From Candidatus Daviesbacteria bacterium (GTDB taxonomy: Bacteria > Patescibacteriota > Microgenomatia > Daviesbacterales > UBA10151), in contig JACPKP010000006.1 in assembly GCA_016186955.1 (NCBI GenBank), positions 4,055 to 68,054 of the forward strand: a DNA stretch of 64,000 nt. The letters are read 5' to 3'. Both the position numbers and the translations under genes were made by a program. Below the pieces are notes generated by a model, which saw only the letters and a list, made by a program, of their open reading frames with translations, did no database searches and had not been told where the DNA came from. This document shows, in pieces, positions 5,371-61,353 of this stretch (the stretch's first letter is position 1; each line of letters opens with the position of its first letter).

Positions 5371-5391
5371 CTGTGCTACAATATATGGTGT

Positions 5392-5460: not shown

Positions 5461-5501
5461 GGAAAAAGAGTGGCTTTTTTGAAGTTCAGGGAGGAAAACA
5501 A

Positions 5502-6059: not shown

Positions 6060-6084
6060 TATTCTTCGAGCAATAAACAATATT

Positions 6085-6285: not shown

Positions 6286-6466
6286 AATATGGGGAGGACA
6301 AGGCGTTTTTTCAGGCAATCTAATAAATCAATGTCCGGTACGGAAGGGGCAAGAAATTTTAACCAGACCAACAGAGGAACCTGGCACGAACGGATATTAA
6401 ATTTTATTAAAGTGAGGGGGAAATCCTCCTACGCCAAGGCTTCGGAGGACAAGGGAATAAACTAAG

Positions 6467-6811: not shown

Positions 6812-6821
6812 TATAATTGAT

Positions 6822-7184: not shown

Positions 7185-7243
7185 TACCCAACCGCTCTTT
7201 TCATATCTTAAAACACAACTGCCAATATGCTAAAATTCAGCTT

Positions 7244-10062: not shown

Positions 10063-10308
10063 GTGGAAAGAATTCAGGTTGGCTTAGGAGTGTGGACAAA
10101 TATGTATACGCACGAAGAGATAGAAGAAAAAGTAAAAAGACCGCCAGACCCCTGGGTTGTTGAATTTGTGACAAAATCATCTTCTTTAACTGAGCAAGAG
10201 AAAAAAGAGTATTTGGATCCTGTAAATTACAGGCAGATGATGCTTGCAGCTTATGAACATATGTGCAAGGAACACGGCAGAAAGCACCATTCTATAATGC
10301 CACAGTAA
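10063..10308 (+). CDS. hypothetical small protein (81 aa)
   Basis: Intact ORF, convergent with the PBP gene. Confidence 0.3.
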   Translation: MERIQVGLGVWTNMYTHEEIEEKVKRPPDPWVVEFVTKSSSLTEQEKKEYLDPVNYRQMMLAAYEHMCKEHGRKHHSIMPQ

Positions 10309-13551: not shown

Positions 13552-14364
13552 ATGGATACCCCTGAAGAGTTAAGGAATACATTATCTTTAGAATCAAATC
13601 TTTCTAGAATTGGTATCACTTCCTTAACATTTCCTCAAATCTTTGAAAAATCAAGAATATTTGGTTTAAAAGCTAATCGTGCTTTTATACCTGAACAAAG
13701 GGGGAGGGTGGCAGATGCCTTATTATTGATGCTAGAGGTTCATTTTGATCAAAATCCTCGTCCAGATGGCACTCCTTATACGGACCACCCCCTAACCGTA
13801 GCAGATAAAATTATGGATATTATGGTTAATCCTGACCCAGAATTAGTCATAGCAGCCCTATTACATGATAGTGTAGAAGACCAAAGTAATAAACTAGCCA
13901 GAAAATATAGAGGATACAACGCAGATTCAACACTAACAGATGAGCAAGCGGCACTAGAATTTATAAAAGTACACTATGGTGCAAGGGTTGGAAGAACTGT
14001 AGCTGCTCTTTCAAATCCCGATTTCAATGCACAATTAGCAATTTTAGGAATAAATGAGAATCACCCTGATTATAGAATACATAAAAATATTCTTTACGCT
14101 CAACACGTTGCGGAAATCTCTGAAAATCCTGATGCGTTTTTAATTAAATTAATGGATTTTACTTCAAATGCTGGAGATTTAATGAAATTACCAGATGGAT
14201 CCCAAAAAATTAAACTAATGAGGAAATATGGCCCTGTTGTGGGTACCATGAAAGATGGACTGTCCCGATTAAATCTTCCTATTAAGGAAAAAGCAAAAAT
14301 TTTATTAGAAGCTAAATTAGAAGACATCGACAATTATATTAGTCAACAGATATCTGCAAAATGA
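13552..14364 (+). CDS. small alarmone hydrolase, RelA/SpoT-family HD domain (standalone SAH/Mesh1-like; 270 aa)
   Basis: HD motifs R-x-x-G-x-PY-x-x-HPL-x-VA and AALLHDSVED, then LIKLMD...N, match the Rel hydrolase-domain signature. TGA stop. Confidence 0.75.
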   Translation: MDTPEELRNTLSLESNLSRIGITSLTFPQIFEKSRIFGLKANRAFIPEQRGRVADALLLMLEVHFDQNPRPDGTPYTDHPLTVADKIMDIMVNPDPELVIAALLHDSVEDQSNKLARKYRGYNADSTLTDEQAALEFIKVHYGARVGRTVAALSNPDFNAQLAILGINENHPDYRIHKNILYAQHVAEISENPDAFLIKLMDFTSNAGDLMKLPDGSQKIKLMRKYGPVVGTMKDGLSRLNLPIKEKAKILLEAKLEDIDNYISQQISAK

Positions 14365-14495
14365 TTTTTTTCTTATAAATTTCTATAAACATTTATCTCC
14401 TCAAAGCTCAGAAATGGTATCAGGGTGCGACTAGCGTTCACTAGGCGGACCGAACGAAGTGAGGGGAGCAGGGCAACGTTCTTGCGGAGCAAAGT

Positions 14496-14512
14496 TGTTA
14501 CCCTGCGGACAG
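14496..14512 (+). repeat. third copy of the tRNA-Tyr 3' end (gttaccctgcggacag) inside a GC-rich segment at 14420..14512
   Basis: Exact 12-nt match to the tRNA 3' end. Confidence 0.5.
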
Positions 14513-14554
14513 TTTAATCCTATAGTTGCTTTTATTTCTAATTTTAAGTAAAAT

Positions 14555-18133: not shown

Positions 18134-19309
18134 CTAACGATCCAAAGCCGGCGCATTCCAGTTGTCGCCACGTACGAGCGCCGGATCCCGCCTTGGCGGG
18201 CGAGAGGCAGCCTGTTTCCGGTTTGAGTCCTGTTCCTGGTCCAGCTTGTCCCAGGGAATGGCCCCCCCTAGCTGTAGTAGGGCGCCCAGGTAACCGTACT
18301 CCTCGTTGCCTGTAGCGACGTTGGACAGCTCCATGATACCCAAGGCATACCGAGTGATGTTACGTTCGAGACGGACGTAGTCCGCTCCAACGTTGACACC
18401 GAGCATCTTGAGCATCATGTCGCGGGTAGTAGCTCCGACAGTTGCCGGAAGTGCGGGGTCCTCCAGGATCCCCTTAATGCGCGTCGCGTCGTGCGCGAGA
18501 GCCCGAGCAACCGGAATTCCAAGGCCGCCAAAGACCTTGTTGATCCGGTTGATGACGGCTTCTGCCTCATCGCGCAGGCCGGCGGTGTCAGGCGGTTGGA
18601 GCATGCCTGGTGGCATAACAGCGGCACCCCCACGGCCGGTCTGAGCCATGGCGAGGACGGAAAGGGCCATCATAGGATTGTTCACCCCCTTGGCCCACGT
18701 ATCGGTCCAGTTGATGAGCAGCTCGTTGAAGCTGCGAAGCGCCGGCCAGAGTTCGGTGTTGAGCCGGGCGAGGAAAGCGCTCTTGCGCTTGTCGCTCATG
18801 AAATTGCCCGGGTACCCGAGCGCCGACAGGACATCCCCGTAACGGCGTTGCTGAGCCAGCTGGTAGACCTTCTTGAAGTTCTCACCGGCAGGCTCTTCCT
18901 GCTCATCGGCAAACTGCTCTGCACGCGCCAGCAGGACTTCAGGTAGTTCGTACAACCCGACCCTTGCAGCGATTGCAGCTCTCATAGCCGACATCACGTC
19001 GATCCGCTCAACCTTGAGCATCCCTCCGACCTTGAGCATCTCCAGGAAGCTTGAGTCGTCAGGAACGGTCGGAAGCGTGTCGAGCGAAGCCGGTTCGGCA
19101 GTGACCTGTTCGGCCGCAGGTGGCGCGGGGGCGAAGGCTTTAGCAGCCTTCTTGGCCGCGATCACGGTGCATCCGGTGATTTCCCGGATTTCATACTCGT
19201 TTAGGAGCACCATTTCGGCATCGCCCGCGACCCCCTGGTCGGCAAGCTTGCCGGTTTGCTCCTCCGAGAAGCCCAGCTCTGTGAGCCGGGTCTTCAGTTC
19301 CTCGTTCAT
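18134..19309 (-). CDS. high-GC hypothetical protein (about 391 aa; start MNEELKTRL preceded by AAAGGAG)
   Basis: Ala/Arg/Gly-rich with GC-rich codons. I used the internal start at 19307..19309, which has a strong RBS. Confidence 0.5.
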   Translation of the reverse strand: MNEELKTRLTELGFSEEQTGKLADQGVAGDAEMVLLNEYEIREITGCTVIAAKKAAKAFAPAPPAAEQVTAEPASLDTLPTVPDDSSFLEMLKVGGMLKVERIDVMSAMRAAIAARVGLYELPEVLLARAEQFADEQEEPAGENFKKVYQLAQQRRYGDVLSALGYPGNFMSDKRKSAFLARLNTELWPALRSFNELLINWTDTWAKGVNNPMMALSVLAMAQTGRGGAAVMPPGMLQPPDTAGLRDEAEAVINRINKVFGGLGIPVARALAHDATRIKGILEDPALPATVGATTRDMMLKMLGVNVGADYVRLERNITRYALGIMELSNVATGNEEYGYLGALLQLGGAIPWDKLDQEQDSNRKQAASRPPRRDPALVRGDNWNAPALDR

Positions 19310-19401
19310 GAAAAACTCCTTTTTGTTTGCTGTCCACAACACATAGCTGTGGATGCGGGGAAACTTCCGTTTCCTCCTTTCTTCACAGTTTCGGGCTGTT
19401 A

Positions 19402-20526
19402 CTAAGAATCGGCTTCTAAAGGTGTAACGTTTTCGCCTTGCCTCGAGTGGCTGATGGGCCATGCGTGGCGGTAGTGGGCGAATACATCTCCCGGGCGGGG
19501 GATGTCCTGGTAGCCGGGCAGCTTAGACTGAGCGCCAAAATGCTCCTGCGCTACCTGAACCATCCGCCAAACCTGATTGAGGTTGGCGGCGTCAATCGTT
19601 ACCTTATCGCCGGTCCGCAGGAACTCGATTAGACCCTGCTTGCTCGGCTTTGACGCCTCCGTCACATAGACGAGGGCTGCACGCACGTCAGCCAAAAGAC
19701 CCGGGTTTTCAACCTGGATGATCCGGCTGCGTCCTCCCAGCTTCTCCGCCCACCAATCCGTAGTGTACGGAAGGAGTCGGCCGGTATAAGTAGGGACTTG
19801 CAGTACGAAAGGATGCCAATGCTCCAAGAGCTGCCGGCAGATTTCCTCCGTCGCCATATTCAAGAAATCAGCTGCCTGGCCAAGATATTCCCTGACGCCC
19901 TCAGCGGTCACGAACCCGCGTCCGATCTCGTCTAAGGCGATCGTCAAATAGCCCTTGAGACCGTAGTAGGTCCATGTGTCCGCGTAGACCGACAGGGCGT
20001 AGTACAGGCCCAAATCGTAATCTTCGGCTGACGAGTCGTTTCCCATGCTTGCAGGCTGGAGCAGCCGCACCTGTTCGGCGCTCCGCTCATCAGACTCAAA
20101 CTGAGAAACTTGAACGACCGGAAGTCCGTCGTTATGGACATTGTAAAAGTCATTTACAACGCCTGTTGCGAGCTGCGGGTTGTACCGGGTTCGCACTCCA
20201 TCAAGCAGCTTGTACTGTCGCTCGGCTGTGCGGAAGAAATCCCCAACATATTGGGATGTACTCCCGGTGCCGTCGAAAAGACTGAGAACCGGCAAGGAAA
20301 CACCGTGGGTCAGAAGATAGGTACCTGGTTCATCACTGGGAACCATCGCGTTATGGCTTTCCCGCGGCTTCTTGCCGACGATGTCGACATTGGGATGAAG
20401 GTGGCCTGTTACGTCGCGGTACGTTTTTCCCGCATCGTGAACACCCTCATGCCGTTGATTCATAGAGCGGACAGTCGCCCGGTAGGATTCCGGGTCAAAT
20501 TGCCGTACATTTTGGGGATTCCCCAT
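19402..20526 (-). CDS. high-GC hypothetical protein (374 aa); possible vWA-like MIDAS-type motif LFDGTGST
   Basis: RBS ggaaaggag before the ATG. The flanking promoter region is AT-rich. The motif assignment is tentative. Confidence 0.45.
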   Translation of the reverse strand: MGNPQNVRQFDPESYRATVRSMNQRHEGVHDAGKTYRDVTGHLHPNVDIVGKKPRESHNAMVPSDEPGTYLLTHGVSLPVLSLFDGTGSTSQYVGDFFRTAERQYKLLDGVRTRYNPQLATGVVNDFYNVHNDGLPVVQVSQFESDERSAEQVRLLQPASMGNDSSAEDYDLGLYYALSVYADTWTYYGLKGYLTIALDEIGRGFVTAEGVREYLGQAADFLNMATEEICRQLLEHWHPFVLQVPTYTGRLLPYTTDWWAEKLGGRSRIIQVENPGLLADVRAALVYVTEASKPSKQGLIEFLRTGDKVTIDAANLNQVWRMVQVAQEHFGAQSKLPGYQDIPRPGDVFAHYRHAWPISHSRQGENVTPLEADS

Positions 20527-22493: not shown

Positions 22494-24359
22494 TTATCTA
22501 CTGAAGAAGAAATCCCAAATAATCTGGAGGAAATCGCGTCCGGCAGAAACTGATACACCCTGGACACTGGGAGCTGGGGTAGACTGCTGCGGGGCAGGAG
22601 TTGACTGATCCGGGGCAGGGGTAGATGATGAAGTTGTCGGCGCCGGGGTAGAGTTGCTGGTACTGCCGGATGAAGCACACTGGCATTGGCAATAATCACC
22701 GCTCCAGTTGCAACTCCCGCCGCACGAGGTGCAACCTGCTTGCTGCTGGTCACGGCTCATTGTAGATGTAGTCGTAGAAGTTGAATTGGAAGTACTACCG
22801 CTAGGCATTTGGCAGTAAGAGCCGTTCCAACTACCTCCTGCCTGTCCACAGGCTGTGGCAGGATCGCTGCTATAACCTGAAGATGAATAAGGATAGGGCG
22901 TAGCATAGCTCCCTCCGCTTGTTGTCCCTGAAGAATTGTATCCGGCGCATCTGCAATAACCCGGGCTCCAGTCACAGGTTCCTCCGCCAGACCTACATGT
23001 TGACTCCTGACTCTCCCTGCTTCCATAATAGCCGGAAGAAGATGGATAACTAGACGTTCCCGGGTAAGGTGAGTAGCTTGCTCCCGGTGCGCCACCACTA
23101 ATCGGGCTTTGGTAACCCTTGCAATAACAGTGTCCTGAACTCCAATCGCATGTCCCGCCTCCAGACTTACAAGTCGATTCCTGGCTTTCTTTACTTCCGT
23201 AATAACCATCCTGCGAACCAGGGGTGTATGTTTTGATCTCCCCGTTAAAAGCGCACGCACATGAATTGTTTGTCCATTTACAATTAGTTGTCCTGTTACA
23301 CATATCCTGGGGATTATAATTTCCGGTAGTGCCTTCAGGTGAAGAATCACGGCAGGATCCGCCATCCCAATACCTACCCGCCTGGGAACACCTCCAAGCG
23401 TCCTGACTTTTATCCAGGGGTGTACAAACACCTCCAGGACCGTAGTAATAGTTAGCGGGACAAGCTTGTGTATAAACATTCCCACCGTATGAACCGCAGG
23501 CGCAGGTATTATTATTCCATGCGCAATTAGGCGTCCTGGCGCAGTATTCCTGAGGGGTATAGTTGCTACCACCCTCACGGTTTTGCGATATAGACCGGCA
23601 TTTTTCCGGGTTTTGTCTGCAGTATGCAGCGCAGGATTCTGCAGTGTTACAACCGCCCGGACCACTGAAGGATTCCACCCCGACTGATTTTGAATATGAT
23701 GAACATATGTTGTAGTTAGCTGGGTCGCTGCAAAAGGCTTTACAGGTGCCTTCTGAGCTGCATCCACCCGGACCAACCTGCTGCTGGCCGCCGCGCAAAC
23801 CTACCTCCTTTGCAAACTCTGAGCATTTTTGCTTGTTTGCCTCCAATCCGCAAAACGTCATGCAATCTTGGGGTGAAGTACAACCTAAGGCCTCTTTTGC
23901 TTTTTCCAGGATCTTTTTTTCTTCTGTTGACCTGACCTGGCCTCCAACCAGGTTATTTTTCCTGGCAAACGAGTCGCATTCATCTACATGCTCCGGCTTA
24001 TCGCAATAACTTTTACAGCTTTCAAAGGAATTACACCCAAAACTTTGTTTTGCCTTGGCTAAAATCTCATCTTTTTTGACAGTTTCCTGCTCTTCTTTAT
24101 AAAAACCTTTCTTTTTGGCAAAATCAATACAGGTCGTATAGTTTACCGGATCCTCACAAAAGCTCCTGCATGATGAGATATCCTGGCAATCACCAAGTTC
24201 TGCAACCGGAAATGTCACACCATATTTTTGGGCAGTCTCGGCAGAATCACTGGCTGATTGGGTTTGGGCAAAAACACCTTTTACCCCAAAAAACAAAAAA
24301 ATAACAGCCGCAAGAGGGAAAATTATTTTTTTGTATTGTCCGTATATAGTTTCTGTCAT
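22494..24359 (-). CDS. secreted Cys-rich repeat protein with a Ser/Tyr/Pro/Thr-rich tail and a C-terminal QIIWDF motif (621 aa)
   Basis: N-terminal signal peptide. Repeated modules of about 40 aa (C-x-SFC-x-P-x-NY-x-C-x-FAKK-G-(F/Y)) and GPGGC-x-T-x-E-x-C. Ends with DFLQIIWDFFFSR. Confidence 0.6.
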   Translation of the reverse strand: MTETIYGQYKKIIFPLAAVIFLFFGVKGVFAQTQSASDSAETAQKYGVTFPVAELGDCQDISSCRSFCEDPVNYTTCIDFAKKKGFYKEEQETVKKDEILAKAKQSFGCNSFESCKSYCDKPEHVDECDSFARKNNLVGGQVRSTEEKKILEKAKEALGCTSPQDCMTFCGLEANKQKCSEFAKEVGLRGGQQQVGPGGCSSEGTCKAFCSDPANYNICSSYSKSVGVESFSGPGGCNTAESCAAYCRQNPEKCRSISQNREGGSNYTPQEYCARTPNCAWNNNTCACGSYGGNVYTQACPANYYYGPGGVCTPLDKSQDAWRCSQAGRYWDGGSCRDSSPEGTTGNYNPQDMCNRTTNCKWTNNSCACAFNGEIKTYTPGSQDGYYGSKESQESTCKSGGGTCDWSSGHCYCKGYQSPISGGAPGASYSPYPGTSSYPSSSGYYGSRESQESTCRSGGGTCDWSPGYCRCAGYNSSGTTSGGSYATPYPYSSSGYSSDPATACGQAGGSWNGSYCQMPSGSTSNSTSTTTSTMSRDQQQAGCTSCGGSCNWSGDYCQCQCASSGSTSNSTPAPTTSSSTPAPDQSTPAPQQSTPAPSVQGVSVSAGRDFLQIIWDFFFSR

Positions 24360-24658
24360 TTTATTGTATCAAACGGATTTTTATATGCGGAAAATGGATT
24401 AACATACTGAGAGCTTTTGTCAAAAGGGTTTTTATAGGCGGTTTGCAATTTAACTGTTGGTTCCTTAGTATTTTGTTGAACCTTATCGGTGATAAGTTTT
24501 GTAGGGTTTTTGATAATACCAGAGGTGATTAGCAAAAACAGCGCTGATATAAAAATAACTGCAACTAGAAGTAGAATAAGATGTGCTATTCCTGACTGGG
24601 CAAGGAGCAGTTTTTTAACCACTAAACATATAATCCCCAAAGACAGGGATTTTGTCAA
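24356..24658 (-). CDS. small single-TM protein with a C-terminal triple NPF-repeat tail (YKNPF...NPF...AYKNPF)
   Basis: Start overlaps the upstream gene stop (ATGA coupling). Paralogous to 30014..30253. Confidence 0.5.
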   Translation of the reverse strand: MTKSLSLGIICLVVKKLLLAQSGIAHLILLLVAVIFISALFLLITSGIIKNPTKLITDKVQQNTKEPTVKLQTAYKNPFDKSSQYVNPFSAYKNPFDTIK

Positions 24659-24672
24659 GTGTCAAAATATGG

Positions 24673-27264
24673 TTAAACCACACTCAAACACCACGTTTGT
24701 TGTTTTTGGTTTTGAATTTTTTTGCACTCATTTTTGGCAAAGTTTTTATCAGAATCCCAATCGAGTAAGGAAGTACCTATCTGTTTAAAACAACTTTCCT
24801 GATGAATGCTGCTCAAATTCGAGCAAAAATCAATCATCTTATTAGTCTTGCCCACGAATCTATACGACAGAGAAGATATTACTCCACCTATGCAAACACT
24901 TTGAAAATGCAAAGAAAGCATACTCTCACAATTTGTTTTCATTAAAGCAAAATCTTTTGTAAAACCAACTTGGTTGGTGCCAATGGTCCTGATGCAATTA
25001 TCCTGGAACTTTTCAGGGATTTTGAAACACATACGGGCTACCTTAGCAAAATCCTGGTGGTTCAAAATTGCAAAATATGAACTCTGGTATTGCCAACAAA
25101 GCGCCAAATATTTTTCTTCTAAAATGTTACATGGATAAAACGGATCATCTTTTTTCAGGTATACTGTTGCGTGATCAAGTGAGGTAGATGAAGAAGAATT
25201 TTCCATAAATACCCCTGTGTAACATTTTTCTTTATGTATTTGCGACTCAAGGGCATCACAAAGTCTCAAGGATTCCTTAAGTTCCATATCCGTTACAAAC
25301 ATGGCTGCATGCCCCAACCCATGTAAACACTCATAATATTCCAAAGGTTTTGTATAATCTTCCAATTTCCCACAAATTTTTGGGAATTGTGCAGCAAGGC
25401 TTGCTTCGGTTTCAAGGTTTTGACTTTTTAAGTAAGCCTCAATTGTGCCATGATAGCAACCCCCATGACAGGTTGAATCACACTGGCTATAAACACCACT
25501 TATATTATTTAACTTTTCAAATTCTAGCCGGGAGAGGTAGTGGGTAACTTCGTGGCATCTGGCAAAAACTTCCTGATAGTCTTCGTTTTCTCTCAAAAGA
25601 CTCATGGTTTTTGACAAACCAAACTGGTCATATAAAACTTTTGCAACCCTCTTATAACAATTATCCCGACCGCCACTGCCATAACAGATGTTTAACTGAT
25701 CCCTCAAATATGCATTTTTATCCTGCCCTATCTCTACCGAGCTGAAATTATTTTTTTTTTGCCTGCCATATTCTTTGATAATTGTCTCCAGATATTTTAA
25801 GCATTCATCCGGGTTTTGCAGACTCTGACAAACCATTGTTGATTTATCACCCCAACCTGGAATTTCCTGAAATATTAATTCTCCTGCGGCAGCTTTTGTA
25901 CAGGCTGCCAAGTAATTTGGGTCGCTTATTTGCCGGCAACCGCTTATGATTTGTTTGGGATCGCCCGATGCAGCTATATAAAAACCTAATGAATCAACAC
26001 AAGCTTTTTTAAACTGCTCAGAGGTTGAATTTAAACAAACCTTTATCACATCATCAAAGCTTAAATGAAATCTACTCATCAGCAGAGTAGCCTGATTTCT
26101 ACCACAGCTAAATGAATATTTTGGTCCAAAATTTGCCTCTAAATCATCGCAGGGGTAATAAGGGTCATCCTTTTTATAAAAATTTTGGCTTGCCGACCTT
26201 GCAAACTCCATAAAAACTCCATCAAAACAGTAATCGTTTCCTGATTGCAATTTTCTACAGGCAGCCAATGCCTCCTGAAGGTCTTTGGTTGTATAAAAAC
26301 TTGCAACCCCGTGGCCTATTCCATGCATACAACTTGCAAAAGGACCACCTGTTCCGAGTTTATTGCATGCATCTTCTGCTTTGGGTAAATCTTTTAAGCT
26401 TTTCTCAAAAGCCTTATCTAAAAAGCCATGGAAGCAGCCAAAAGCAAAGTCCTGCGAACAAATAGTGATACCTGAAAAACTTTTCTTTTCGTAAATAAGC
26501 TTTCCCATCAGGTGAGTCAAATCATGAACATTTCCGGTAGTTCCTCCCTGTCCTTGATAAGTTTGTTTTAGAAACTGCCAAGTATTTTCAACCCCCTCAA
26601 TCTCCACCATCTCATTTATACTTTTAATTTGTTCATCAGGAGAAAGTTTGTTTAAGTTTGGGCGGATAAAACTTTTATTTTGGTTTTGTGTTTGATTATT
26701 TTTTTTGAAGTTAAAATGAAACAAACTACTGAAAAAGTTTGAAATTTTATTTTTAGCAATTTCAAACCAATTTTGTTTAGTAGTTTTTGGAGGCGGAAAA
26801 TCCTGATCAACCGCACTTGTTTCACCATTGACAATCAATTCTCCTCGAAAATGCGGATAAAGGTGATCATGGAATTTCCAATTGCCGGTTTTAGGTTTAA
26901 AAGCCCAATCCCTTCCAGGGTCTATCTCATGTTTGGGGTCAAACTCAGGATAGGTATCATGAGTAGGATGGATGTTGGAAGCTGGCCAATGCGCATTACT
27001 GCCTTCATTAATAAATATTACAGTTGTATCGGAATCAATCTCAATTGTTTGCGGATCAAACCCATTATCTGTTATTTTAATCACTTGAGTTGCAGAGTGG
27101 GCAAAAGTCGGTTGAGGGAAAAATGAACTATTCTGCAGTAAACTGCGGAGTATCCCTTCGGGAAAGTTCTTCTGTGAACCATTCATCCTCCACAAAGCTT
27201 GCGAGGTATTCTGGTTCAAGAATAACAAAAAGGAGATTAAAAAAAATTTTAAAAAACCCCCCAT
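24673..27264 (-). CDS. secreted protein (863 aa) with an N-terminal cupredoxin-like beta domain and repeated C-x-HG-x-GH modules
   Basis: Signal peptide. VIKITDNGFDPQTIEIDSDTTVIFINEGSNAHWPAS resembles a cupredoxin-like segment. Repeats include CFHGFLD, CMHGIGHG, CYHGTIE and CLHGLGHA. Paralogous to 31051..32274. Confidence 0.55.
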   Translation of the reverse strand: MGGFLKFFLISFLLFLNQNTSQALWRMNGSQKNFPEGILRSLLQNSSFFPQPTFAHSATQVIKITDNGFDPQTIEIDSDTTVIFINEGSNAHWPASNIHPTHDTYPEFDPKHEIDPGRDWAFKPKTGNWKFHDHLYPHFRGELIVNGETSAVDQDFPPPKTTKQNWFEIAKNKISNFFSSLFHFNFKKNNQTQNQNKSFIRPNLNKLSPDEQIKSINEMVEIEGVENTWQFLKQTYQGQGGTTGNVHDLTHLMGKLIYEKKSFSGITICSQDFAFGCFHGFLDKAFEKSLKDLPKAEDACNKLGTGGPFASCMHGIGHGVASFYTTKDLQEALAACRKLQSGNDYCFDGVFMEFARSASQNFYKKDDPYYPCDDLEANFGPKYSFSCGRNQATLLMSRFHLSFDDVIKVCLNSTSEQFKKACVDSLGFYIAASGDPKQIISGCRQISDPNYLAACTKAAAGELIFQEIPGWGDKSTMVCQSLQNPDECLKYLETIIKEYGRQKKNNFSSVEIGQDKNAYLRDQLNICYGSGGRDNCYKRVAKVLYDQFGLSKTMSLLRENEDYQEVFARCHEVTHYLSRLEFEKLNNISGVYSQCDSTCHGGCYHGTIEAYLKSQNLETEASLAAQFPKICGKLEDYTKPLEYYECLHGLGHAAMFVTDMELKESLRLCDALESQIHKEKCYTGVFMENSSSSTSLDHATVYLKKDDPFYPCNILEEKYLALCWQYQSSYFAILNHQDFAKVARMCFKIPEKFQDNCIRTIGTNQVGFTKDFALMKTNCESMLSLHFQSVCIGGVISSLSYRFVGKTNKMIDFCSNLSSIHQESCFKQIGTSLLDWDSDKNFAKNECKKIQNQKQQTWCLSVV

Positions 27265-27317
27265 ACTTAATCAAAATTATACATAAATGAAAATTTTAAG
27301 AAAGTGTTAAAAAAATT

Positions 27318-28322
27318 TTACTTGCCTGTAAGAAAATCCCAAATAATCTGCCAATAACTACGCTCTGTGCTCACACCTGAAACACCCGGGGTTGGGTAAG
27401 CATAACTAGGTGTGCCATAAGATGGGGTGTCATAGCTTGGGGTGCCATAGGATGGAGTTCCATAAGATGGGGTGTCATAGCTTGGTGTGCCATAAGATGG
27501 AGTAGCATATGAGTCACTAGGGGTGCCATAACTAGGCGTACCATAAGATGGGGTTCCATAGGAAGGGGTGCCATAACTTCCTGGGGTGGGATAAGCATAC
27601 CCTGGGGTGTAATAAGTCCCACTTGGTGTTCCATAAGTCCCTGGTGTGTAGTAGCTTGGTGATGGATAGCTGTAGCCTGTCCCTGGGGTGGGATAAGCAT
27701 ATGGTGATGGATATGCGTAACTAGCGCCTGGAGTCGGATAATAATAATTTGGCGAAGCATAAGGACTATAGTATGTGCTCGGAGTCACATACCCTGAATC
27801 CGGCGTGATGTAACCGCTTCCAGGAGTATAGTAAGGACTTGTATAAGTGCCTCCCGGAGTGTAATAGGATGGTGAATAATAAGTCGGGGTGTAGTAATTT
27901 GGTGTTGAGTATGGCGTGTAGTAAGACGGGGAAGTATAGGTTGAGCCCTCGGGAGGGGTGTAATATTGCGGGGTTGAATAGGGTGTATAGTAGGTTGGGG
28001 TCGAATAAGGAGTCGGTGTGTAATAAGTAGGAGTGTTGTAAACAGCAGGAGTATAGTAAGAAGGGCTGGTATAAGTACTTCCTGCTGGTGGTGTTGGATA
28101 AGTAGGAGTGCTATAAGCAACCGGAGTATTATAGGCAGGCGGAGTTGGATAAGTTCCTGGTGTGTAATAATTTGGTGTTGTATAAGGAGGCGGCGGGGTA
28201 TAGTAGGACGGGCTTGTATAATTTGAACCTGCTGGAGGAGTGTAATAGGTTGGGGTTGAATAGGTTGGAGGAGTGTAATAGGTTGGGGTTGAATAACCTC
28301 CGCCTGTCCATGGTGTGTAGTA
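27318..28322 (-). pseudogene. Tyr/Pro/Thr-rich low-complexity tail (about 334 codons) in frame with 28323..30017 and separated from it by a single TGA; ends in YWQIIWDFLTGK
   Basis: Both track ORFs lie in the same minus-strand frame (coordinates 0 mod 3). My hand translation of 27789..28322 gives YYTPWTGGGYSTPTYYTPP... with no stop. Confidence 0.5.
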
Positions 28323-30017
28323 TCATGGTGTGTAGTATTGCGGTGTGGTGTAGGTTGGTGGGGTTGTATAACTCGGTGTAGTGTAAGTAGAACCTGCTGG
28401 AGGAGTGTAATAATAAGGAGTCATATACTGAGGAGGTGTGTAGTAATAAGGTGTTGTGTAATTTGAACCTGCTGGAGGAGTGTAATAAGAAGGCGTTGAA
28501 TAAGTTGGGGTTGGGTATGCACCGGTCGGCGTTGGGTAATTATTCCATGGTGTGTAGTAATTTGGTGTTGTGTAATTTGAACCTGCTGGAGGAGTGTAAT
28601 AAGAAGGCGTTGAATAAGTTCCTGGTGTGTAGTAATTTGGTGTTGTGTAATTTGAACCTGCTGGAGGAGTGTAATACAACGGCGTTGTATAGAAATTAGT
28701 TACAGGTGGTGTCACATACTCAATGTTGTGCGGGGGGGTGTAATAAGTACCCGGAATATAAATGTCGGGTGGCCTGGGCGCCTTTTCATTAAAACCCGGG
28801 CAAGCATCTTTATGATCCTTACAATAATCATAACAACCCCCAGGAGTTGTACAATCACCCATTTCTTTAATCGGTTCATGTTTGACTTCTGTACCAGGGG
28901 TAAAATAAACATAGGGCGTATAATCATCTGTAGGTCTTTGGGAATTACCATCAAATCCTTTGCAGCTTTCAGCCGTTGGGTTTGCCTTACAATAGTCATA
29001 ACATTCACCAGGCGTTTTACAATTTCCCATATCGGCCCTGGCTTCGAAATGAGCATTGGGTACAGTGGGATCAATTCCATCTGGAGCTTGATCCTGGCAA
29101 GAGTCACCATTCCAGTATTTATCCGCTCCAACACAATCTGTAGCCGGTTTAGTCTCTGAAACTGCAGTACATGCTCCTCCCGGCCCATGAAATTCATTAG
29201 AGGGACAAACAAACGGTACATAGTAACCACTTGAATCCGGTGCATAGCTTCTGCATTGGTCCGGATTAGATTCACAATAATTTCTACATGAAGTTACATC
29301 CGTACAACCGCCAGGTCCCCGGAAATCATTTCCCGGGCTAAAGCTCTGGCATGCTTTAAAATTGTTTGGATCAGAACAAAAGGAACCACAGGTCTCCGGG
29401 GTTTGACATCCCCCCGGACCGCCGGTCTCTTTTCCACCCAATAATCCTGTTTTATTAGCAAATTCATTACATTTATCCTGATTGTTCGGATCAGCACAAA
29501 AAGCGCTACAATTCTCTTTAGAATCACAACCCAAATCCTGTTTTGCAGTTTCTAATATCTCTTTTTTATCAGGTTGTTTGACATACCCTCCCAAGATATC
29601 ATGCCTTTTAGCATAGGATTCGCAAGTATCATGGTTGTCATCTTTCGAACAAAAATCCAAACAAGCGCTTGTGGAACCACAACCCAATTCTTTATTTGTA
29701 TCATCCCAAAATTTTGTATCACCATAAACAGTAGGATCATCTTTATAAAAACCGTTTTGCTTCGCATATTCAGAGCAATTATTGTAATTTATCGGGTCAT
29801 TACAAAAATTTGTGCAATCTTCCAGGTTTTTACAACTTCCTAAATCAATAATGGGGTAGGTCAAATCCTGAGAAGTACTATTTGTTGTGCCATTTGATGT
29901 CGGAGATGCTGGTTGTGCATAAATAATGTTTGTAAAAATCAATAAAAGAAAAGCAACTAAAAATAAGGTTAAAGTTTTAGTTAAATTCAAGGATAGGTCT
30001 TTTGTTAAATTGTTCAT
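28323..30017 (-). CDS. secreted Cys-rich repeat protein (564 aa), paralogous to 22494..24359, truncated by TGA at 28323..28325
   Basis: Signal peptide and the same Cys modules (GSCKNLEDCTNFCNDPINYNNCSEYAKQNGFY...). A PY repeat tail begins before the stop. Confidence 0.6.
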   Translation of the reverse strand: MNNLTKDLSLNLTKTLTLFLVAFLLLIFTNIIYAQPASPTSNGTTNSTSQDLTYPIIDLGSCKNLEDCTNFCNDPINYNNCSEYAKQNGFYKDDPTVYGDTKFWDDTNKELGCGSTSACLDFCSKDDNHDTCESYAKRHDILGGYVKQPDKKEILETAKQDLGCDSKENCSAFCADPNNQDKCNEFANKTGLLGGKETGGPGGCQTPETCGSFCSDPNNFKACQSFSPGNDFRGPGGCTDVTSCRNYCESNPDQCRSYAPDSSGYYVPFVCPSNEFHGPGGACTAVSETKPATDCVGADKYWNGDSCQDQAPDGIDPTVPNAHFEARADMGNCKTPGECYDYCKANPTAESCKGFDGNSQRPTDDYTPYVYFTPGTEVKHEPIKEMGDCTTPGGCYDYCKDHKDACPGFNEKAPRPPDIYIPGTYYTPPHNIEYVTPPVTNFYTTPLYYTPPAGSNYTTPNYYTPGTYSTPSYYTPPAGSNYTTPNYYTPWNNYPTPTGAYPTPTYSTPSYYTPPAGSNYTTPYYYTPPQYMTPYYYTPPAGSTYTTPSYTTPPTYTTPQYYTP

Positions 30018-30253
30018 TTGTTTAAAAATGGATTTTTATATGCCTGAAAAGGGTTAAGATATTGGGTGTCTTTGTTGAAAGGATTACGGTACCCGGTTTT
30101 TAAGGTTACTTTGGGGCTTTGTTTTTTACTTAAACCCGGAAGATTTTTAAAAGGGTTATTAATAAAACCGAAATAAATAAGGAGGCTGCCCGCAATAACA
30201 AGCAGTAACAACAACGGTAATGCTAGATGAATTACTCCTTTTTGTTTCCCCAC
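30014..30253 (-). CDS. small single-TM protein with a C-terminal NPF-repeat tail, paralogous to 24356..24658
   Basis: Ends YRNPFNKDTQYLNPFQAYKNPFLNK. Start overlaps the upstream stop. Confidence 0.5.
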   Translation of the reverse strand: MGKQKGVIHLALPLLLLLVIAGSLLIYFGFINNPFKNLPGLSKKQSPKVTLKTGYRNPFNKDTQYLNPFQAYKNPFLNK

Positions 30254-30337
30254 TCTATTAAAACTTTCTTATATATTGTAATCTTGCTCACAATTATTTA
30301 TGCTTGTCAAGAGGCAATTTTTTATGAAGCTCCACGG

Positions 30338-31054
30338 TTAAAACCGTGGTTTTCTGCTTTTTGCTGATGAATCTACCCACGACTTTACAGTCGGGGTTTT
30401 ATCGAGATAAAAGGCATACTCTTCCTCTAATTTTGACAAATCATAAATAAATAATTTTTTACCGACGTAACCAATTAGATTATTATCCCGAAGTTTTTTA
30501 AATTCCTTGGTCACTGACTCCCTAGCCAGACCTGCTTGATAAGCCAGTTGTTCATGGGTAGGGGAGTAGTCAAAAGTAACTTTACCATTGATATTTTTAC
30601 CAAACCTTTTTGAGTAGATAATCAGATGAGTTATGATTTTTAAATATGCATCACCCAAAAGCAATACTTCCACTCTCTGAAAAAATCCATCCAACCCCAG
30701 GTATATTCTTTTTAACAAATCCAGCATAATATCCGGGTTATTCTTTAAAAATTTTTTAAAATAAGTTTTGGGGGCAAAATACCCTTCAACCTCTGATAAA
30801 GCATCATAACTATACTTATCCTGAATATTCCTTAATATTAAAGACATCGGAAATAGGGAGTAGGGTTTATAAATATTCAGTGTCAGCCGGTTATCGTTTA
30901 AAGCGCTAAACATCCTGACTGCCCCTTTTGTTAAGAAAAATATTTTTTTACTCTTCGGATTGATCACTTGTTTTCCCCTGGCAAAAGTCTTTAACCGATA
31001 TTTACTAAAAAAAGATAAAAGTAGTGTTTGAACCTTAGGATGCATAGAATTCAT
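30338..31054 (-). CDS. Crp/FNR-family transcriptional regulator
   Basis: cNMP-binding-like N-terminus and a C-terminal HTH (THEQLAYQAGLARESVTKEFKKLRDNNLI). Overlaps the upstream gene by 4 nt. Confidence 0.7.
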   Translation of the reverse strand: MNSMHPKVQTLLLSFFSKYRLKTFARGKQVINPKSKKIFFLTKGAVRMFSALNDNRLTLNIYKPYSLFPMSLILRNIQDKYSYDALSEVEGYFAPKTYFKKFLKNNPDIMLDLLKRIYLGLDGFFQRVEVLLLGDAYLKIITHLIIYSKRFGKNINGKVTFDYSPTHEQLAYQAGLARESVTKEFKKLRDNNLIGYVGKKLFIYDLSKLEEEYAFYLDKTPTVKSWVDSSAKSRKPRF

Positions 31055-32274
31055 TGGGAGATAAGCGGGGTAAAATTAGACAAACACTGGTTTTGGAATG
31101 GCTGCTCAATTTTTTTACACCAAAACTCTTTTTGGCTTCTGTCTATCGGGTCTGAGATAATTTGGCTGATAATTGTTTGGTAGCATTCCTGTTTGACGCT
31201 TGGGGGGGTATTTTCGCATATAAATATGGCTTGACCCCGACCGCCAACAGAATAAAATGATCCAGCGTTTACAACAATACAGTTGTCATACCATTTAGCG
31301 CCTGCCTGTTGGCAGAGTTGAAATGCTTTAGAAGGATCGCCATTTGTTAAAGGGTGTATTTGCCTGGCTACATTATCCATACACCAAGCGGCATATTGAT
31401 CATTGCCAACTTCCTGACACAGTTGAGATGTTTTAGCAATATCTCCTTTGTTTATTTGATAAATCCTGGCAGCCTGGTTTAACCAACAACCTTTTTGGTA
31501 TTTTTCTTCAAATGCATTACAGGGAAAATACGGGTCGTTGGACAACCAATCCCTTTTTTGTTCCTTCGCGGTCCCCCAATCATGAACACCAAATAAATTT
31601 TCCATAAAGGCGCCGTTATGACAAGAGCTTAAGGCTTCCGGAAATTTATCTTCTTTTTCATAAAGCCTGTCACAGGTTTTTAATGCCTGCGGTAGATCAT
31701 AATTCCAAATCGCCAGGATCGAGTGGCCAGCTGCATGGACACATTGGAAATACCTAACAGAGGATTCTTTACATTTATCAGTCATCTTGGTGATTGCATC
31801 AAACCCTTGGTCTGATGCAGCCTCAATAATCGCTCCATGATAGCAAGCATAAAGAAAGTAGTCTTTGCACTTTAAAATAGCATCTACTCCGTATTTTTGG
31901 TAGGCATAGAAACCAATCTGATGAACTACCAGATGCCCTTCACCGGTGTGGGGCAGTGGTGAGCGTTCTAAGATTTCTAAGGCTTTCTCCACATCAACCC
32001 TTTCTACTAATTTCCTGGCGGCTTTTAAACGAACTGCCTGTTCAGAGGACATAATATCTTTCATTTCCGGGACATCCTCTTTGGCACCTAAAACAGAATT
32101 GGGGGAAGAATTGTTAAAATTAATTGAAGACTGTTTATTATTCGATTGTAGAGAGGTCTTTTTTGGCTGGTGGCGGTATTCCTGCAGTTGAAAAACAACT
32201 GCCGCAGTAATAAAAAGAAGTAAAATAATTTTAAGGTTGACTTTACTATTTCTTTTATTCCATTTAAACTTCAT
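31051..32274 (-). CDS. secreted or membrane-anchored protein (407 aa) with repeated C-x-H-x-GH modules, paralogous to the C-terminal half of 24673..27264
   Basis: CYHGAIIEAAS, CVHAAGHSILA, CHNGAFMENLFG and CMDNVARQ repeats, with an N-terminal hydrophobic segment. Confidence 0.55.
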   Translation of the reverse strand: MKFKWNKRNSKVNLKIILLLFITAAVVFQLQEYRHQPKKTSLQSNNKQSSINFNNSSPNSVLGAKEDVPEMKDIMSSEQAVRLKAARKLVERVDVEKALEILERSPLPHTGEGHLVVHQIGFYAYQKYGVDAILKCKDYFLYACYHGAIIEAASDQGFDAITKMTDKCKESSVRYFQCVHAAGHSILAIWNYDLPQALKTCDRLYEKEDKFPEALSSCHNGAFMENLFGVHDWGTAKEQKRDWLSNDPYFPCNAFEEKYQKGCWLNQAARIYQINKGDIAKTSQLCQEVGNDQYAAWCMDNVARQIHPLTNGDPSKAFQLCQQAGAKWYDNCIVVNAGSFYSVGGRGQAIFICENTPPSVKQECYQTIISQIISDPIDRSQKEFWCKKIEQPFQNQCLSNFTPLISQ

Positions 32275-32324: not shown

Positions 32325-32753
32325 TTAATGTACTCTGTTCTTTCTTTTTACCCGAAGTTGGGCAAGGGATTTCTCCAGGATTGCCAATGTTTCTACATAT
32401 TCTTCATCAGATAATTTTTGTTCCAAAGCTTGCTCAGCTCTTTTTCTGGCTTCCTCAACCTTTTTCTCATCAATCTCATCCTCATCTACAGCCAAATCTG
32501 TCAATATTGTCAGGGTGTTTTCTGCAATCTGCATAAACCCTGCCCCAACAGCCATAACCTGGGTTTTATTCCCATGTTTTATCTTTAATTCTCCGGGAAC
32601 CGTTTTTGCCATCAAATTTGCATGGTGGGGAAGTATACCCAGTTCACCTTCAGATGACGGCAGTGTCACAAGATCAACCAATCCTTCAAAAATCTGCTTT
32701 TCCGGAGTGACAATTTTTAAATTCAGCTGGGACATACTTGGAATTATATTCAA
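32325..32753 (-). CDS. atpC: F1 ATP synthase epsilon subunit
   Basis: LNLKIVTPEKQIFEGLVDLVTLPSSEGELGILPHHANL is typical of the epsilon subunit. Confidence 0.85.
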   Translation of the reverse strand: MNIIPSMSQLNLKIVTPEKQIFEGLVDLVTLPSSEGELGILPHHANLMAKTVPGELKIKHGNKTQVMAVGAGFMQIAENTLTILTDLAVDEDEIDEKKVEEARKRAEQALEQKLSDEEYVETLAILEKSLAQLRVKRKNRVH

Positions 32754-33139
32754 TTTATAGTAGCATTGCCAATATGGCAGAACACGGGTGCGGGGCGATA
32801 ATAATAACCTGTATCGACTACCGCTTTCAGGAATATATCAATAAGTGGATCGGGGAAAATTTCTTGCCCGGCACATATGACAGGGGGGCATTTGCAGGCG
32901 CTGCAAAAAGCCTTGATACCATAGTTGAACAAGTCGGGATATCTGCCAAACTGCACCATATAAAAAAAGTTGTTTTAATCAACCATGAGGACTGCGGGGC
33001 ATATGGGAAAGAGGGGAGAATTGACCAACATATCAAGGACCTTAAAAAAGCCCGTCAAAGAATTACAAAACAGTACCCCATATTTGAAATAGATACCTTC
33101 TATCTTAAACTTGATGGTACTTTTGAACAGGACTTCTAG
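32738..33139 (+). CDS. small beta-carbonic-anhydrase-like protein (133 aa)
   Basis: Motifs C-I-D-Y-R and H-E-D-C-G fit the beta-carbonic-anhydrase zinc ligand pattern CxDxR...HxxCG. Confidence 0.45.
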   Translation: MELYSIYSSIANMAEHGCGAIIITCIDYRFQEYINKWIGENFLPGTYDRGAFAGAAKSLDTIVEQVGISAKLHHIKKVVLINHEDCGAYGKEGRIDQHIKDLKKARQRITKQYPIFEIDTFYLKLDGTFEQDF

Positions 33140-33183
33140 CCCTATAGTTTGACAAACCGGCGGATTTAAGATATAATCATCGC

Positions 33184-33744
33184 ATGATTATTGAATCAAT
33201 TTCCCATACTGTGGAAGTAAAAAGGAATTTTGTGAAACCGGCCGAACAGGTTGTGAGAAAACTTGCAGAGGATTACAGCAAGTCATACATGTCATACAGG
33301 AATGCTGTTTGGCTAGATAATAGTGGTGCTGACTACTTTATTATCGGTAGGATACCGGCGCTGGAATTTCTTTTGCAGTCATTGAACCAAAGCAGACTGG
33401 TCAAACTTGTTAAAATAGGTACGTCGTTTGATCAAATCCAAAATGTAAAATTTGAGTCTTTCCCAATGATAGGCGAAAGCGCTATAAGAGGTGTCCTTGA
33501 ATATTATGAAGCAGCACAATCCGAAGTATGCCGCGCTTACCATGCAAGCATGATATCACCCGGCAACCGGTTTGTGTTGGAAAATTGGCTGGGAGCAAGC
33601 TCGGTATATGAGGAATTTCTGGCTGCAATCGGACAGTCCCAAGCCGCTTTAAGAATCGCAAATTTTGCAATCAACAGATTAAACGCCCAAGTTTTCCACA
33701 AATTAGCACAGAATTCTCAACATGAAAGAATATTTACCCATTGA
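33184..33744 (+). CDS. hypothetical protein (186 aa)
   Basis: Intact ORF. Confidence 0.35.
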   Translation: MIIESISHTVEVKRNFVKPAEQVVRKLAEDYSKSYMSYRNAVWLDNSGADYFIIGRIPALEFLLQSLNQSRLVKLVKIGTSFDQIQNVKFESFPMIGESAIRGVLEYYEAAQSEVCRAYHASMISPGNRFVLENWLGASSVYEEFLAAIGQSQAALRIANFAINRLNAQVFHKLAQNSQHERIFTH

Positions 33745-34279
33745 CTTCTGTTTAGAATTTAACTTAGAGAGAAATGGTTTAATTTGGAAATTTTTGGGTT
33801 TACCGCTAGCAAATGACACGGGTTTTACTTCACATATGATCAATTACGTTAATTGTTATGTAGATTGGCACGATGTTTATAAAAATCCAAGAGAAGCCAG
33901 AATGCACATGTATTTAGACGGACTTCACCCTCTTGGTTTAGAAAAACCAAACTTTGAAGAAAAACTATTCAGGATGAGAAGATGGGCGGATGCCATTTTA
34001 GCTTTTGATTCAATAATGACGGATGATTATAATCCCAAGATAGATGTTAATGAACTAAAAAAAATGCTAAGTAACAGTACTCTTCCAAGACCCAGTATTT
34101 TAATACATCCAACAGGAAAAGAAAGTTTAATCAAACTTTTTAGTAATTTAGATTGCTTCTATAACCCATACGATAGACATTTGAATACTGCCCCAATCAA
34201 ACATAATTGGAACGGTTTTGTAGACAACGTAAAATCTGGAAAATTTATAGAGGAATGGAAACGTCAAAAAGGGAGATAG
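33722..34279 (+). CDS. hypothetical protein (185 aa)
   Basis: Intact ORF overlapping the previous one. Confidence 0.35.
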   Translation: MKEYLPIDFCLEFNLERNGLIWKFLGLPLANDTGFTSHMINYVNCYVDWHDVYKNPREARMHMYLDGLHPLGLEKPNFEEKLFRMRRWADAILAFDSIMTDDYNPKIDVNELKKMLSNSTLPRPSILIHPTGKESLIKLFSNLDCFYNPYDRHLNTAPIKHNWNGFVDNVKSGKFIEEWKRQKGR

Positions 34280-34341
34280 GTTATTTTAAATCTTCAGCTC
34301 CACCGATCATGATCATATAGAAAACAGTTTTTAGTTAATTT

Positions 34342-34665
34342 TTAATCTCTGATTCTGGTGAATTTTCTTTTAAAATTTTTGCCTGATTTTATTGCTCTTA
34401 AAAGAACTTTCTTTTTATTTTCTACTGACTCATCTTTTAAACGCAGCAATATTACACCGAAATGAACTAATTTTTCTTTGAAGACTAATTCACCAAAATC
34501 TTTGTCCATGGTTAGGAGAATTCTATTTTCTTTATTGGCAATATCTAAAATGTCAGAATCAGGTTTATTTAGAGCTACTTCTATTGCAGAAATTACATCA
34601 AGACCTAAATCTTTTAAGTATTTAGGTATTTGAATACCCAGATTTTCATCTGTTATAAATTTCAT
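34342..34665 (-). CDS. DUF5615-like (PIN-related) putative toxin
   Basis: MKFITDENLGIQIPKYLKDLGLDVISA...ILLTMDKDFGEL matches the DUF5615 pattern (hxxDENL...LTxDKDF). Confidence 0.6.
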   Translation of the reverse strand: MKFITDENLGIQIPKYLKDLGLDVISAIEVALNKPDSDILDIANKENRILLTMDKDFGELVFKEKLVHFGVILLRLKDESVENKKKVLLRAIKSGKNFKRKFTRIRD

Positions 34666-34888
34666 GAAGGTAAGAGACAGCTTGGGATTGGGGTTTGGAA
34701 ACCTGTTTTACAGCATATTCTACAGCTGCTTTAATATCAGCTTCCTCAAGTTGTGGGAAATCTTCTAGAATGTCTTTTATAGTTAACTTCTGAGCTAAAA
34801 GCCTTAAAATTTGCTCCACTGTTATTCTTGTCCCTGCAACAATTGGTTTTCCCAACATAATTTTAGGATCAGTTATAATCTTTGGCAT
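34646..34888 (-). CDS. DUF433-like putative antitoxin
   Basis: PKIMLGKPIVAGTRITVEQILRLL is typical of DUF433. Overlaps the downstream partner by 20 nt. Confidence 0.6.
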   Translation of the reverse strand: MPKIITDPKIMLGKPIVAGTRITVEQILRLLAQKLTIKDILEDFPQLEEADIKAAVEYAVKQVSKPQSQAVSYLHEIYNR

Positions 34889-61352: not shown

Positions 61353-61353
61353 T

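Follow-up and report, generated by a model that had tools for sequence, protein, structure and literature searches.

A conserved gene cluster for three families of predicted exported proteins in Microgenomates, a candidate regulated envelope module

The Hcp proteins of Helicobacter are Sel1-like repeat proteins with one disulfide per repeat, and Tyr/Pro-rich proteins that are cross-linked include plant extensins, mussel foot proteins and, with the laccase CotA, the Tyr-rich proteins of the Bacillus spore coat. Together with the wall-spanning surface proteins of Gram-positive bacteria, the cupredoxins and the Crp/FNR regulators, these are the described systems closest to a gene cluster that we analyze here in a 64,000-nucleotide stretch of DNA from Candidatus Daviesbacteria bacterium (assembly GCA_016186955.1, contig JACPKP010000006.1, positions 4,055 to 68,054; hereafter the window, to which positions refer unless another locus is named). 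Its minus strand carries, in this order, the genes A1, crp, B1, C1, A2, B2 and C2, where A, B and C are three families of predicted exported proteins and crp encodes a Crp-family regulator. The type of system is familiar: a surface protein that is anchored and stands on a stalk, partners built of helical repeats, and an operon under Crp control. What appears to be new, judging from sequence comparisons, is the families A, B and C, a site of five His, one Met and one Glu in A (His5-Met-Glu), a Cys-less four-His variant of the cupredoxin domain, and a tether ending in NPF peptides.

The likenesses are partial. As in Hcp, the A proteins are predicted to be exported and all-helical, with units of roughly 34 to 36 residues in which a Cys pair can bridge two helices; unlike Hcp, they match no Sel1 model, and they have an invariant His5-Met-Glu patch and recurrent fusions to cupredoxin-like domains that are absent from Hcp. 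C resembles Gram-positive wall-spanning surface proteins in its signal peptide, folded modules, long Pro/Thr-rich region and conserved C-terminus with a basic end, but neither LPXTG nor another known sorting motif is present, a C-terminal transmembrane (TM) helix is lacking, its stalk is 23% Tyr, and a conserved one-TM partner, B, is encoded alongside. The stalk and the cross-linked Tyr/Pro proteins have in common long Tyr/Pro/Thr/Ser repeats (YYTPP, TPSYG) that are encoded next to putative copper proteins, but they share no sequence homology, and for A no fold of a tyrosinase, laccase or peroxidase was detected.

The reading that we favor, and hold tentatively, is that the cluster is a regulated cell-envelope module of a monoderm bacterium of the candidate phyla radiation (CPR), with three exported components: B as tether, C as displayed stalk protein, and A as a probable copper-binding partner. 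It builds on the gene order, paralogy, conservation, export signals, invariant residues, domain fusions and promoter box that are observed below. B would span the membrane once, with its N-terminus inside and a short outside tail ending in three Y-x-N-P-F peptides. Synthesis of C would be coupled to that of B by an ATGA overlap of the two genes, and C would be secreted by the Sec pathway. The B tail would probably serve as the docking site that keeps C at the membrane, perhaps with help from a short amphipathic segment at the C-terminus of C itself; the N-terminal part of C, an array of eight helical-hairpin modules in which disulfides probably act as staples, would be carried outward on a Tyr/Thr/Pro stalk of roughly 450 residues. 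A1 would be membrane-anchored and A2 secreted, both as disulfide-stapled helical solenoids, and the His5-Met-Glu patch and the cupredoxin-like domain of A2 would probably bind copper. The Tyr-rich stalk is the most likely target or partner of A, which would cross-link it oxidatively, mature it or grip its repeats in the groove of the solenoid, as the invariant site, the cupredoxin fusions and the correlation of Tyr-rich tails with A indirectly suggest. Finally, the Crp-family regulator would control transcription of B and C (and perhaps of A2 and what follows) via a TGTGA-N6-TTACA box at the B promoter.

Gene order and its conservation

All genes of the cluster are on the minus strand. A1 (31051..32274, 407 residues) has an N-terminal membrane anchor, a linker and one A domain, and is followed by crp (30338..31054, 238 residues) and by B1 (30014..30253, 79 residues), which has one TM helix and an NPF tail. 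The first open reading frame (ORF) of C1 (28323..30017) encodes 564 residues, and about 900 if an in-frame TGA is read through (27318..30017). A2 (24673..27264, 863 residues) carries a signal peptide, a cupredoxin-like domain (residues 54-145, nucleotides 26830..27105) and two A domains; B2 (24356..24658), of up to 100 residues with an uncertain true start, has one TM helix and a tail; and C2 (22494..24359) encodes 621 residues. A preliminary description, made by reading the sequence, had placed these ORFs at the same positions and taken the two gene sets for paralogs. BLASTP bears this out: A1 matches the halves of A2 at 3e-23 (26% identity) and 1e-21 (24%), B1 matches B2 at 8e-21 (46%), and C1 matches C2 at 6e-67 (35% across the N-terminal 335 residues). 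ATGA stop/start overlaps join B1 to C1 and B2 to C2, as had been noted, and also A1 to crp.

The proposal that the proteins are secreted or surface-located agrees with the N-terminal signal peptide or membrane anchor predicted on all of them. A1, B, C1 and C2 each have one N-terminal hydrophobic segment and no further TM segment, and the N-terminus of A2, as read from its sequence, is signal-peptide-like. A, B and C had been said to belong to no described family, and they indeed match nothing in Pfam, NCBIfam, the PDB sequences (single-sequence and profile searches) or the PDB folds, nor did we find a description of them in the literature; the exception is the cupredoxin-like domain of A2, which matches a known fold family below the Pfam cut-off. 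Rfam and tRNA scans detected no RNA element in the region.

To follow the cluster across genomes, 42 loci, designated here by L numbers, were assembled by looking up contigs and by scanning a single genome for each species; ORFs were called in each and searched with the window proteins. A total of 38 are genome loci. The order [atpC] A1 [crp] B C A2-like is kept in about 30 of these 38 Microgenomates loci, from Daviesbacteria, Levybacteria, Blackburnbacteria and other Microgenomates, so that the three families occur together well beyond this genome. The crp gene stands between A1 and B in nine of the compared loci, and a second B-C pair, as in the window, is seen in a few only (L021, L025, L030). 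The tandem three-gene duplication of the preliminary description is thus a feature of the window; the conserved unit elsewhere has four genes, A1-B-C-A2, and the second B-C pair is an occasional add-on to it. A1 is identical to HYW46_03740 of the NCBI, a hypothetical protein of Candidatus Daviesbacteria, a phylum of the Microgenomates within CPR/Patescibacteria.

The gene atpC, encoding the epsilon subunit of ATP synthase (32325..32753, minus strand in the window), is a conserved upstream neighbor of A1: it is immediately upstream in L001, L003, L011, L030 and L033, and within 5 kb in seven further loci. Median identity to the window proteins is 73% for A1, 67% for atpC, 58% for B, 57% for A2 and 56% for the C modules. 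By this measure, A1 is under stronger constraint than a subunit of ATP synthase. In L001, a third A-type paralog of 373 residues is encoded (14318..15439, minus), in opposite orientation, between C and the A2 gene that bears the cupredoxin domain; A genes therefore multiply locally.

The B-C pair and the A proteins

The three NPF motifs that had been described in B are present in both proteins as Y-x-N-P-F peptides (YRNPF, YLNPF and YKNPF in B1; YKNPF, YVNPF and YKNPF in B2). The orthologs have a basic N-terminus, often N-Q-K-G followed by V/I-I-H-L, then one TM helix, and last a tail whose alignment gives the consensus K-V-x-L-K-T-E-Y-K-N-P-F-x-K-E-T-Q-Y-V-N-P-F-x-x-Y-K-N-P-F. As a query, B found only 9 proteins, such short genes being seldom called, and its homologs were recovered from the loci instead.

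Distant C-like proteins, with 23 to 31% identity, are found in Pacebacteria, Paceibacterota and Sungiibacteriota. In four of the four Parcubacteria-type loci with separate genes that were examined (L045, L047, L048, L049), a gene for a small one-TM protein ends 2 to 14 nucleotides upstream of the C-like gene, and its product ends ...NPx...NPx...(Y)(K/E)NPF. In the Sungiibacteriota locus L044 (CP066690, 5977..7059), B and C are fused into one protein of 360 residues, comprising a TM helix, ETNPFEIKSNPFEFFKNPF and Cys modules, with three NPF motifs between the helix and the modules. This fusion would place the NPF tail of B on the same side of the membrane as the exported Cys modules, that is, outside. 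No A domain was found within 6 kb of B-C in L044, L045, L047, L048 or L049. The presence of B-C in Parcubacteria-type genomes without A suggests that the pair is older than its link to A, and B-C appears to be the older core of the cluster. A P-type ATPase gene lies directly downstream of the L044 fusion. In the Daviesbacteria locus L046, the order is atpC, three glycosyltransferase genes, then B-C, without A; these genes, of family 2 (3542..7278), occupy the position that A1 has elsewhere, and may hint at glycosylation of the Ser/Thr/Tyr-rich tails.

The C proteins start with a Sec-type signal peptide. C1 has 32 Cys, arranged in seven C-x5-C-x3-C-x6/8-C modules and one C-x11-C-x11-C-x11-C module, and C2 has 48, in five C1-like four-Cys modules and in Cys modules of other spacing. 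In an AlphaFold2 (AF2) model of residues 1-420 of C1, each four-Cys module forms two short helices, with a predicted local distance difference test score (pLDDT) of 72 (locally 80 to 90) and a predicted TM-score (pTM) of 0.30. The Cys most likely form disulfides rather than metal sites, because their spacing is that of helical hairpins, export is of the Sec type, and an MdbA/VKOR system is reported in CPR: MdbA-like and VKOR disulfide machinery is encoded by these bacteria (bioRxiv 10.1101/335083). A role in attachment has been proposed for extracellular CPR proteins that are rich in Cys (PMC4736985). Binding of Fe-S clusters by the four-Cys modules was considered and is unlikely, the proteins being exported by Sec.

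After the modules comes the tail, which in C1 has 478 residues (23% Tyr, 22% Thr, 22% Pro) and in C2 is of Ser/Gly/Thr/Pro type. Tyr makes up 17 to 26% of C tails in loci with A genes and 0 to 8% in loci without. C1 ends in GVST...WQIIWDFLTGK and C2 in QGVS...FLQIIWDFFFSR. The QIIWDF motif, which had been put forward as a conserved end, is not fixed: orthologs end in QGVS(T), a hydrophobic or amphipathic stretch of 10 to 14 mixed residues, and G-K/R. A Kyte-Doolittle scan detected no TM-like segment at the C-terminus, where the terminal stretch is too short to span the membrane, and none of the known combinations of sorting signature, TM helix and basic cluster (LPXTG/sortase, PEP-CTERM, GlyGly-CTERM and similar) was found. 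No sortase is encoded among the neighboring genes, to which this search was confined.

C1 itself is interrupted. Its frame stays open to 27318 beyond a single TGA at 28323..28325, and this TGA is formed at the junction of a 15-nucleotide tandem duplication (28309..28338, minus strand; ATACTACACACCATG twice; period 15, 2.0 copies, 100% identity in Tandem Repeats Finder) inside a YYTPW repeat. Intact orthologs have 800 to 980 residues, and that of L001, with 926, reads QYYTPWTGGGY at this site, without the duplication. We conclude that C1 is a C gene of full length, disrupted either by a duplication of the slippage type or by an error in the assembly; the duplication could reflect reversible slippage, heterogeneity of the population or an assembly artefact. 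The stop removes the last ~335 residues, that is, about two-thirds of the stalk and the conserved C-terminus. Recoding of the TGA (code 4 or 25, or selenocysteine) was rejected: TGA ends 23 of the 74 ORFs of the window, B1, B2 and A1 among them, and the stop sits exactly at the duplication junction.

A1 is anchored by residues 9-32, followed by a disordered linker and the A domain, and its AF2 model is all-helical (pLDDT 85.5, pTM 0.75). The A domain, present once in A1 and twice in A2, contains 16 Cys in eight pairs with a repeat period of about 34 residues; the two Cys of a pair are 7 to 16 residues apart, and successive pairs 20 to 33, mostly about 22. The C-x-HG-x-GH motifs that had been taken for repeats in their own right are present, in the forms C-x-H-G and C-x-H-x-x-G-H, but they are not free-standing: they start the long helices of the first two of the eight Cys-pair repeats. 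The pairs lie at helix ends of the model, with a spacing suitable for one inter-helix bridge per repeat. No Pfam repeat model, Sel1 included, matches the domain, nor does it match the Sel1-like repeat proteins in structure.

We aligned 211 A domains from 149 representatives of 50%-identity clusters. H114, H118, H146, H180, H184, M224 and E225 (A1 numbering) are each kept in at least 192 of about 200 aligned domains, counted over the sequences that have a residue at the column, and the Cys pairs are likewise kept in nearly all. Four long helices in succession carry these seven residues, and the repeat register puts them at corresponding heights, so we infer that the residues form one contiguous patch. 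The domain lacks the six His on a four-helix bundle, in a tyrosinase-like fold, of the type-3 binuclear copper proteins tyrosinase and hemocyanin. Heme binding by its His and Met was also considered; to our knowledge, CPR bacteria generally lack heme synthesis. The family is very large: a profile search of 1.84 billion cluster representatives retrieved 5,513 clusters at E ≤ 1e-3 and 816 at E ≤ 1e-30. Giant relatives (P0202, of 3580 residues on an 831-kb contig, P0204, P0205, P0211 and P0214) have five to nine tandem A domains. A role of A as disulfide oxidase for C was set aside, CPR bacteria already carrying MdbA/VKOR (bioRxiv 10.1101/335083).

The cupredoxin-like segment reported for the longer A protein stands on its relatives rather than on A2 itself. 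The Cupredoxin_1 match of A2 (E = 1.4e-4, 22.2 bits) falls below the Pfam cut-off of 27, whereas the same domain passes it in P0229 (67.5 bits), P0213 (46.4), P0233 (45.9) and P0259 (37.8). Cupredoxin_1 was found in 17 of the 30 multi-domain A relatives scanned, at the N-terminus, at the C-terminus or between A domains. In sequence the A2 domain resembles the cupredoxin fold families (PF13473, PF00127), but its motif, WPASNIHPTH...WKFHDH, offers four His and neither a Cys nor a Met ligand. The strict signature WPASNxHPTH...(W/F)x(F/Y)HDH, again with four His and without Cys or Met, occurs in 39 of 156 representatives and is always joined to A domains.

The ligand pattern of type-1 copper (C-x(2-4)-H-x(2-5)-M) is absent from A2, which reads F-H-D-H-L-Y-P-H-F-R-G, with Asp in place of Cys and no Met; Cys and Met are missing likewise from the 39 related domains. 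The only PDB sequence match of the domain is the copper nitrite reductase NirK (9cck_A), in a weak alignment that sets FHDH opposite YHCH. On that alignment, HPxH and HxH fall at the copper-ligand places of NirK and multicopper oxidases, and the domain thus appears to keep their His without the Cys of blue copper, HCH being replaced by HDH. Since the type-1 Cys and Met are missing, the cupredoxin-like domain is probably not an ordinary, blue-copper electron carrier. The earlier idea of copper or other metal binding, or of redox chemistry, therefore gains from the recurrent A-cupredoxin fusions and loses from the lack of a type-1 site and from Cys that are likelier to form disulfides; metal binding and any redox activity are both putative.

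The Crp-family regulator and its box

The product of crp has the C-terminal helix-turn-helix and N-terminal cNMP-binding-like domains of the Crp/FNR family: HTH_Crp_2 is matched at 7e-10 (39.2 bits, Pfam cut-off 27) and cNMP_binding at a borderline 27.1 bits (cut-off 27.5). NCBIfam gave only weak matches, to NtcA, FnrL and CRP. Unlike FNR, the protein contains no Cys, and hence none of the cluster that holds the FNR-type [4Fe-4S] center, so it is not an FNR-type oxygen sensor.

Between crp and B1 lies a CRP-type box, TGTGAGCAAGATTACA (30277..30292, minus strand), which is the only match to TGTRA-N6-TYACA in the window and fits the CRP half-sites TGTGA-N6-T(T/C)ACA. A TGTGA-N6-TTACA box precedes B in nine of the nine loci with an embedded crp and in 4 of the 22 without. 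The larger element cTTGACA-N11-TTGTGA-N6-TTACAAT (30270..30312 in the window) is conserved across the embedded-crp loci, with matching promoter regions in L007, L016, L017, L019, L023, L024, L027 and L041, and L030 has perfect TGTGA-N6-TCACA boxes upstream of both its B genes. This argues for the regulated expression that had been suggested from the embedded gene, and the regulator could bind the stretch TTGTGAGCAAGATTACAA at the box. The hexamers TTGACA and TACAAT resemble the -35 and -10 consensus; the box fills the spacer and overlaps TACAAT, which stands 24 nucleotides from TTGACA, an unusual promoter geometry. With this non-canonical spacing, the regulator may act as an activator or as a repressor. 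A search for a second Crp box with up to two mismatches gave no more matches than expected by chance.

Competing explanations and neighboring genes

Several observations weigh against a single envelope module. None of the three families is tied to a function by experiment or homology. A with a cupredoxin partner is found without B-C, for example in L043, from a high-GC organism, and in proteins with up to nine tandem A domains, while B-C also occurs without A; the association of A with B-C may therefore reflect synteny confined to a lineage and not a functional tie. The correlation between Tyr-rich tails and A is confounded by phylogeny, L046 being the only counter-example within a clade. Amphipathicity of the segment at the C-terminus of C is only weak, with a median hydrophobic moment of 0.56 against 0.41 for shuffled tails (95th percentile 0.66). 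The clustering of the His and the disulfide geometry in A are deduced from the repeat register, not from model coordinates. Finally, C1 is truncated before the end of its stalk; if this is real, the full-length protein is dispensable here.

One competing explanation is that A and B-C are unrelated neighbors, the order atpC-A1-B-C-A2-...-PBP1 being inherited synteny in one class of small, rarely rearranged genomes, with A an independent family of surface metalloproteins and B-C an independent surface pair. B-C without A in five Parcubacteria-type loci and in L046, the L043 case, and the unrelated atpC and class A penicillin-binding protein (PBP) genes that flank the cluster in several genomes all fit it. 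We nevertheless find it doubtful: the order persists despite crp inserted between A1 and B, unrelated insertions between atpD and atpC and a variable downstream content; A genes stand on both sides of C in most loci; Tyr-rich tails track A; and, in the window, A1 is translationally coupled to a regulator whose box precedes B. An alternative that keeps the genes together is extracytoplasmic metal handling or a short redox chain, in which A, the cupredoxin-like domain and the Cys-rich C proteins would bind copper, or a different thiophilic metal, or buffer it outside the membrane, or would hand electrons to an acceptor outside, with stalk and tether merely positioning the proteins. The invariant His, Met and Glu of A, its repeated fusion to cupredoxin-like domains, a four-His motif resembling the inter-domain copper ligands of NirK and multicopper oxidases, the 32 to 48 Cys of C and the P-type ATPase adjoining the L044 fusion speak for it. 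We judge it unlikely, however, as the cupredoxin-like domain lacks the Cys and Met of a type-1 electron-transfer site, the cluster has no CopA/CsoR/CueR-type genes, cytochromes or quinone enzymes, disulfides suit a fixed C-x5-C-x3-C-x8-C on helical hairpins exported by Sec better than metal thiolates do, and the record of the L044 ATPase shows no heavy-metal-binding domain.

A pilin-like fiber or adhesin was also considered, with B a short, E5-less pilin-like subunit cut by prepilin peptidase and C a separate globular part, as in the split PilA-N/PilA-C of Geobacter, together making a filament for surface attachment. In about two thirds of B proteins, (N/R)(Q)(K/R)-G and a hydrophobic helix form the N-terminus, their leaders resemble those of the window's own pilins (for example TNQKG-QSLLE, KKG-QIVIV), a type IV pilus cluster is present (56601..63803), B and C show a fusion/fission pattern, and disulfides are common in pilins. 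However, no B has Glu at +5 (V-I-H-L-A), as a class III signal would, one B protein in three is without the Gly, a leader ending in Gly is lacking in the fused L044 protein, C has a cleavable Sec signal of its own and a 450-residue low-complexity stalk unlike a pilin head, and the cluster is not linked to the pilus genes. We regard this as very unlikely. The boldest form of the copper idea, which seems improbable to us, is that A and the Cys-less four-His cupredoxin-like domain are a new class of extracytoplasmic copper oxidase, which in Microgenomates would build a covalent envelope layer by cross-linking the Y-x-N-P-F tails of B and the Tyr stalks of C; if so, the cluster would be the genetic basis of a CPR-specific cell-surface structure.

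CPR bacteria, or Patescibacteria, account for a large share of bacterial diversity; their lifestyle is one of attachment to other cells, and almost nothing is known of the molecules that form their envelope. B-C would give them a tether and Cys-module pair conserved across the phylum, A is a very large uncharacterised family in which the invariant His/Met/Glu site is sharply defined and which has a cupredoxin variant of its own, and crp with its box is a matched regulator/operator pair open to in vitro work. If A binds copper and acts on the stalk, both an enzyme family and a mode of bacterial surface construction would be new. Otherwise, B-C would still be a candidate attachment or envelope protein for organisms without genetic tools.

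Some neighboring features of the window can be added. The class A PBP gene (Transgly, Transpeptidase and Big_7 domains) lies at 10292..12820, and such a gene is also found a few kb downstream of the cluster in L001, L003 and L046. About 2.1 kb (32738..34888) part atpC from atpD; this gap contains a putative carbonic anhydrase gene (Pro_CA_2, 1.9e-16), two unknown plus-strand ORFs and a small toxin-antitoxin-like pair. Despite the insertion, atpC still adjoins A1 here and in other genomes. The type IV pilus-like cluster at 56601..63803, on the minus strand, has five pilin-like ORFs, four with G-F/Q/V-x-L-x-E leaders and one without Glu at +5. Lastly, an island at 18134..20526 has a GC content of 0.588, against about 0.40 elsewhere, and carries two minus-strand ORFs of 442 and 374 residues without Pfam or PADLOC match; it is probably foreign DNA, because the second ORF matches the phage family phrog_2971 (9e-10).

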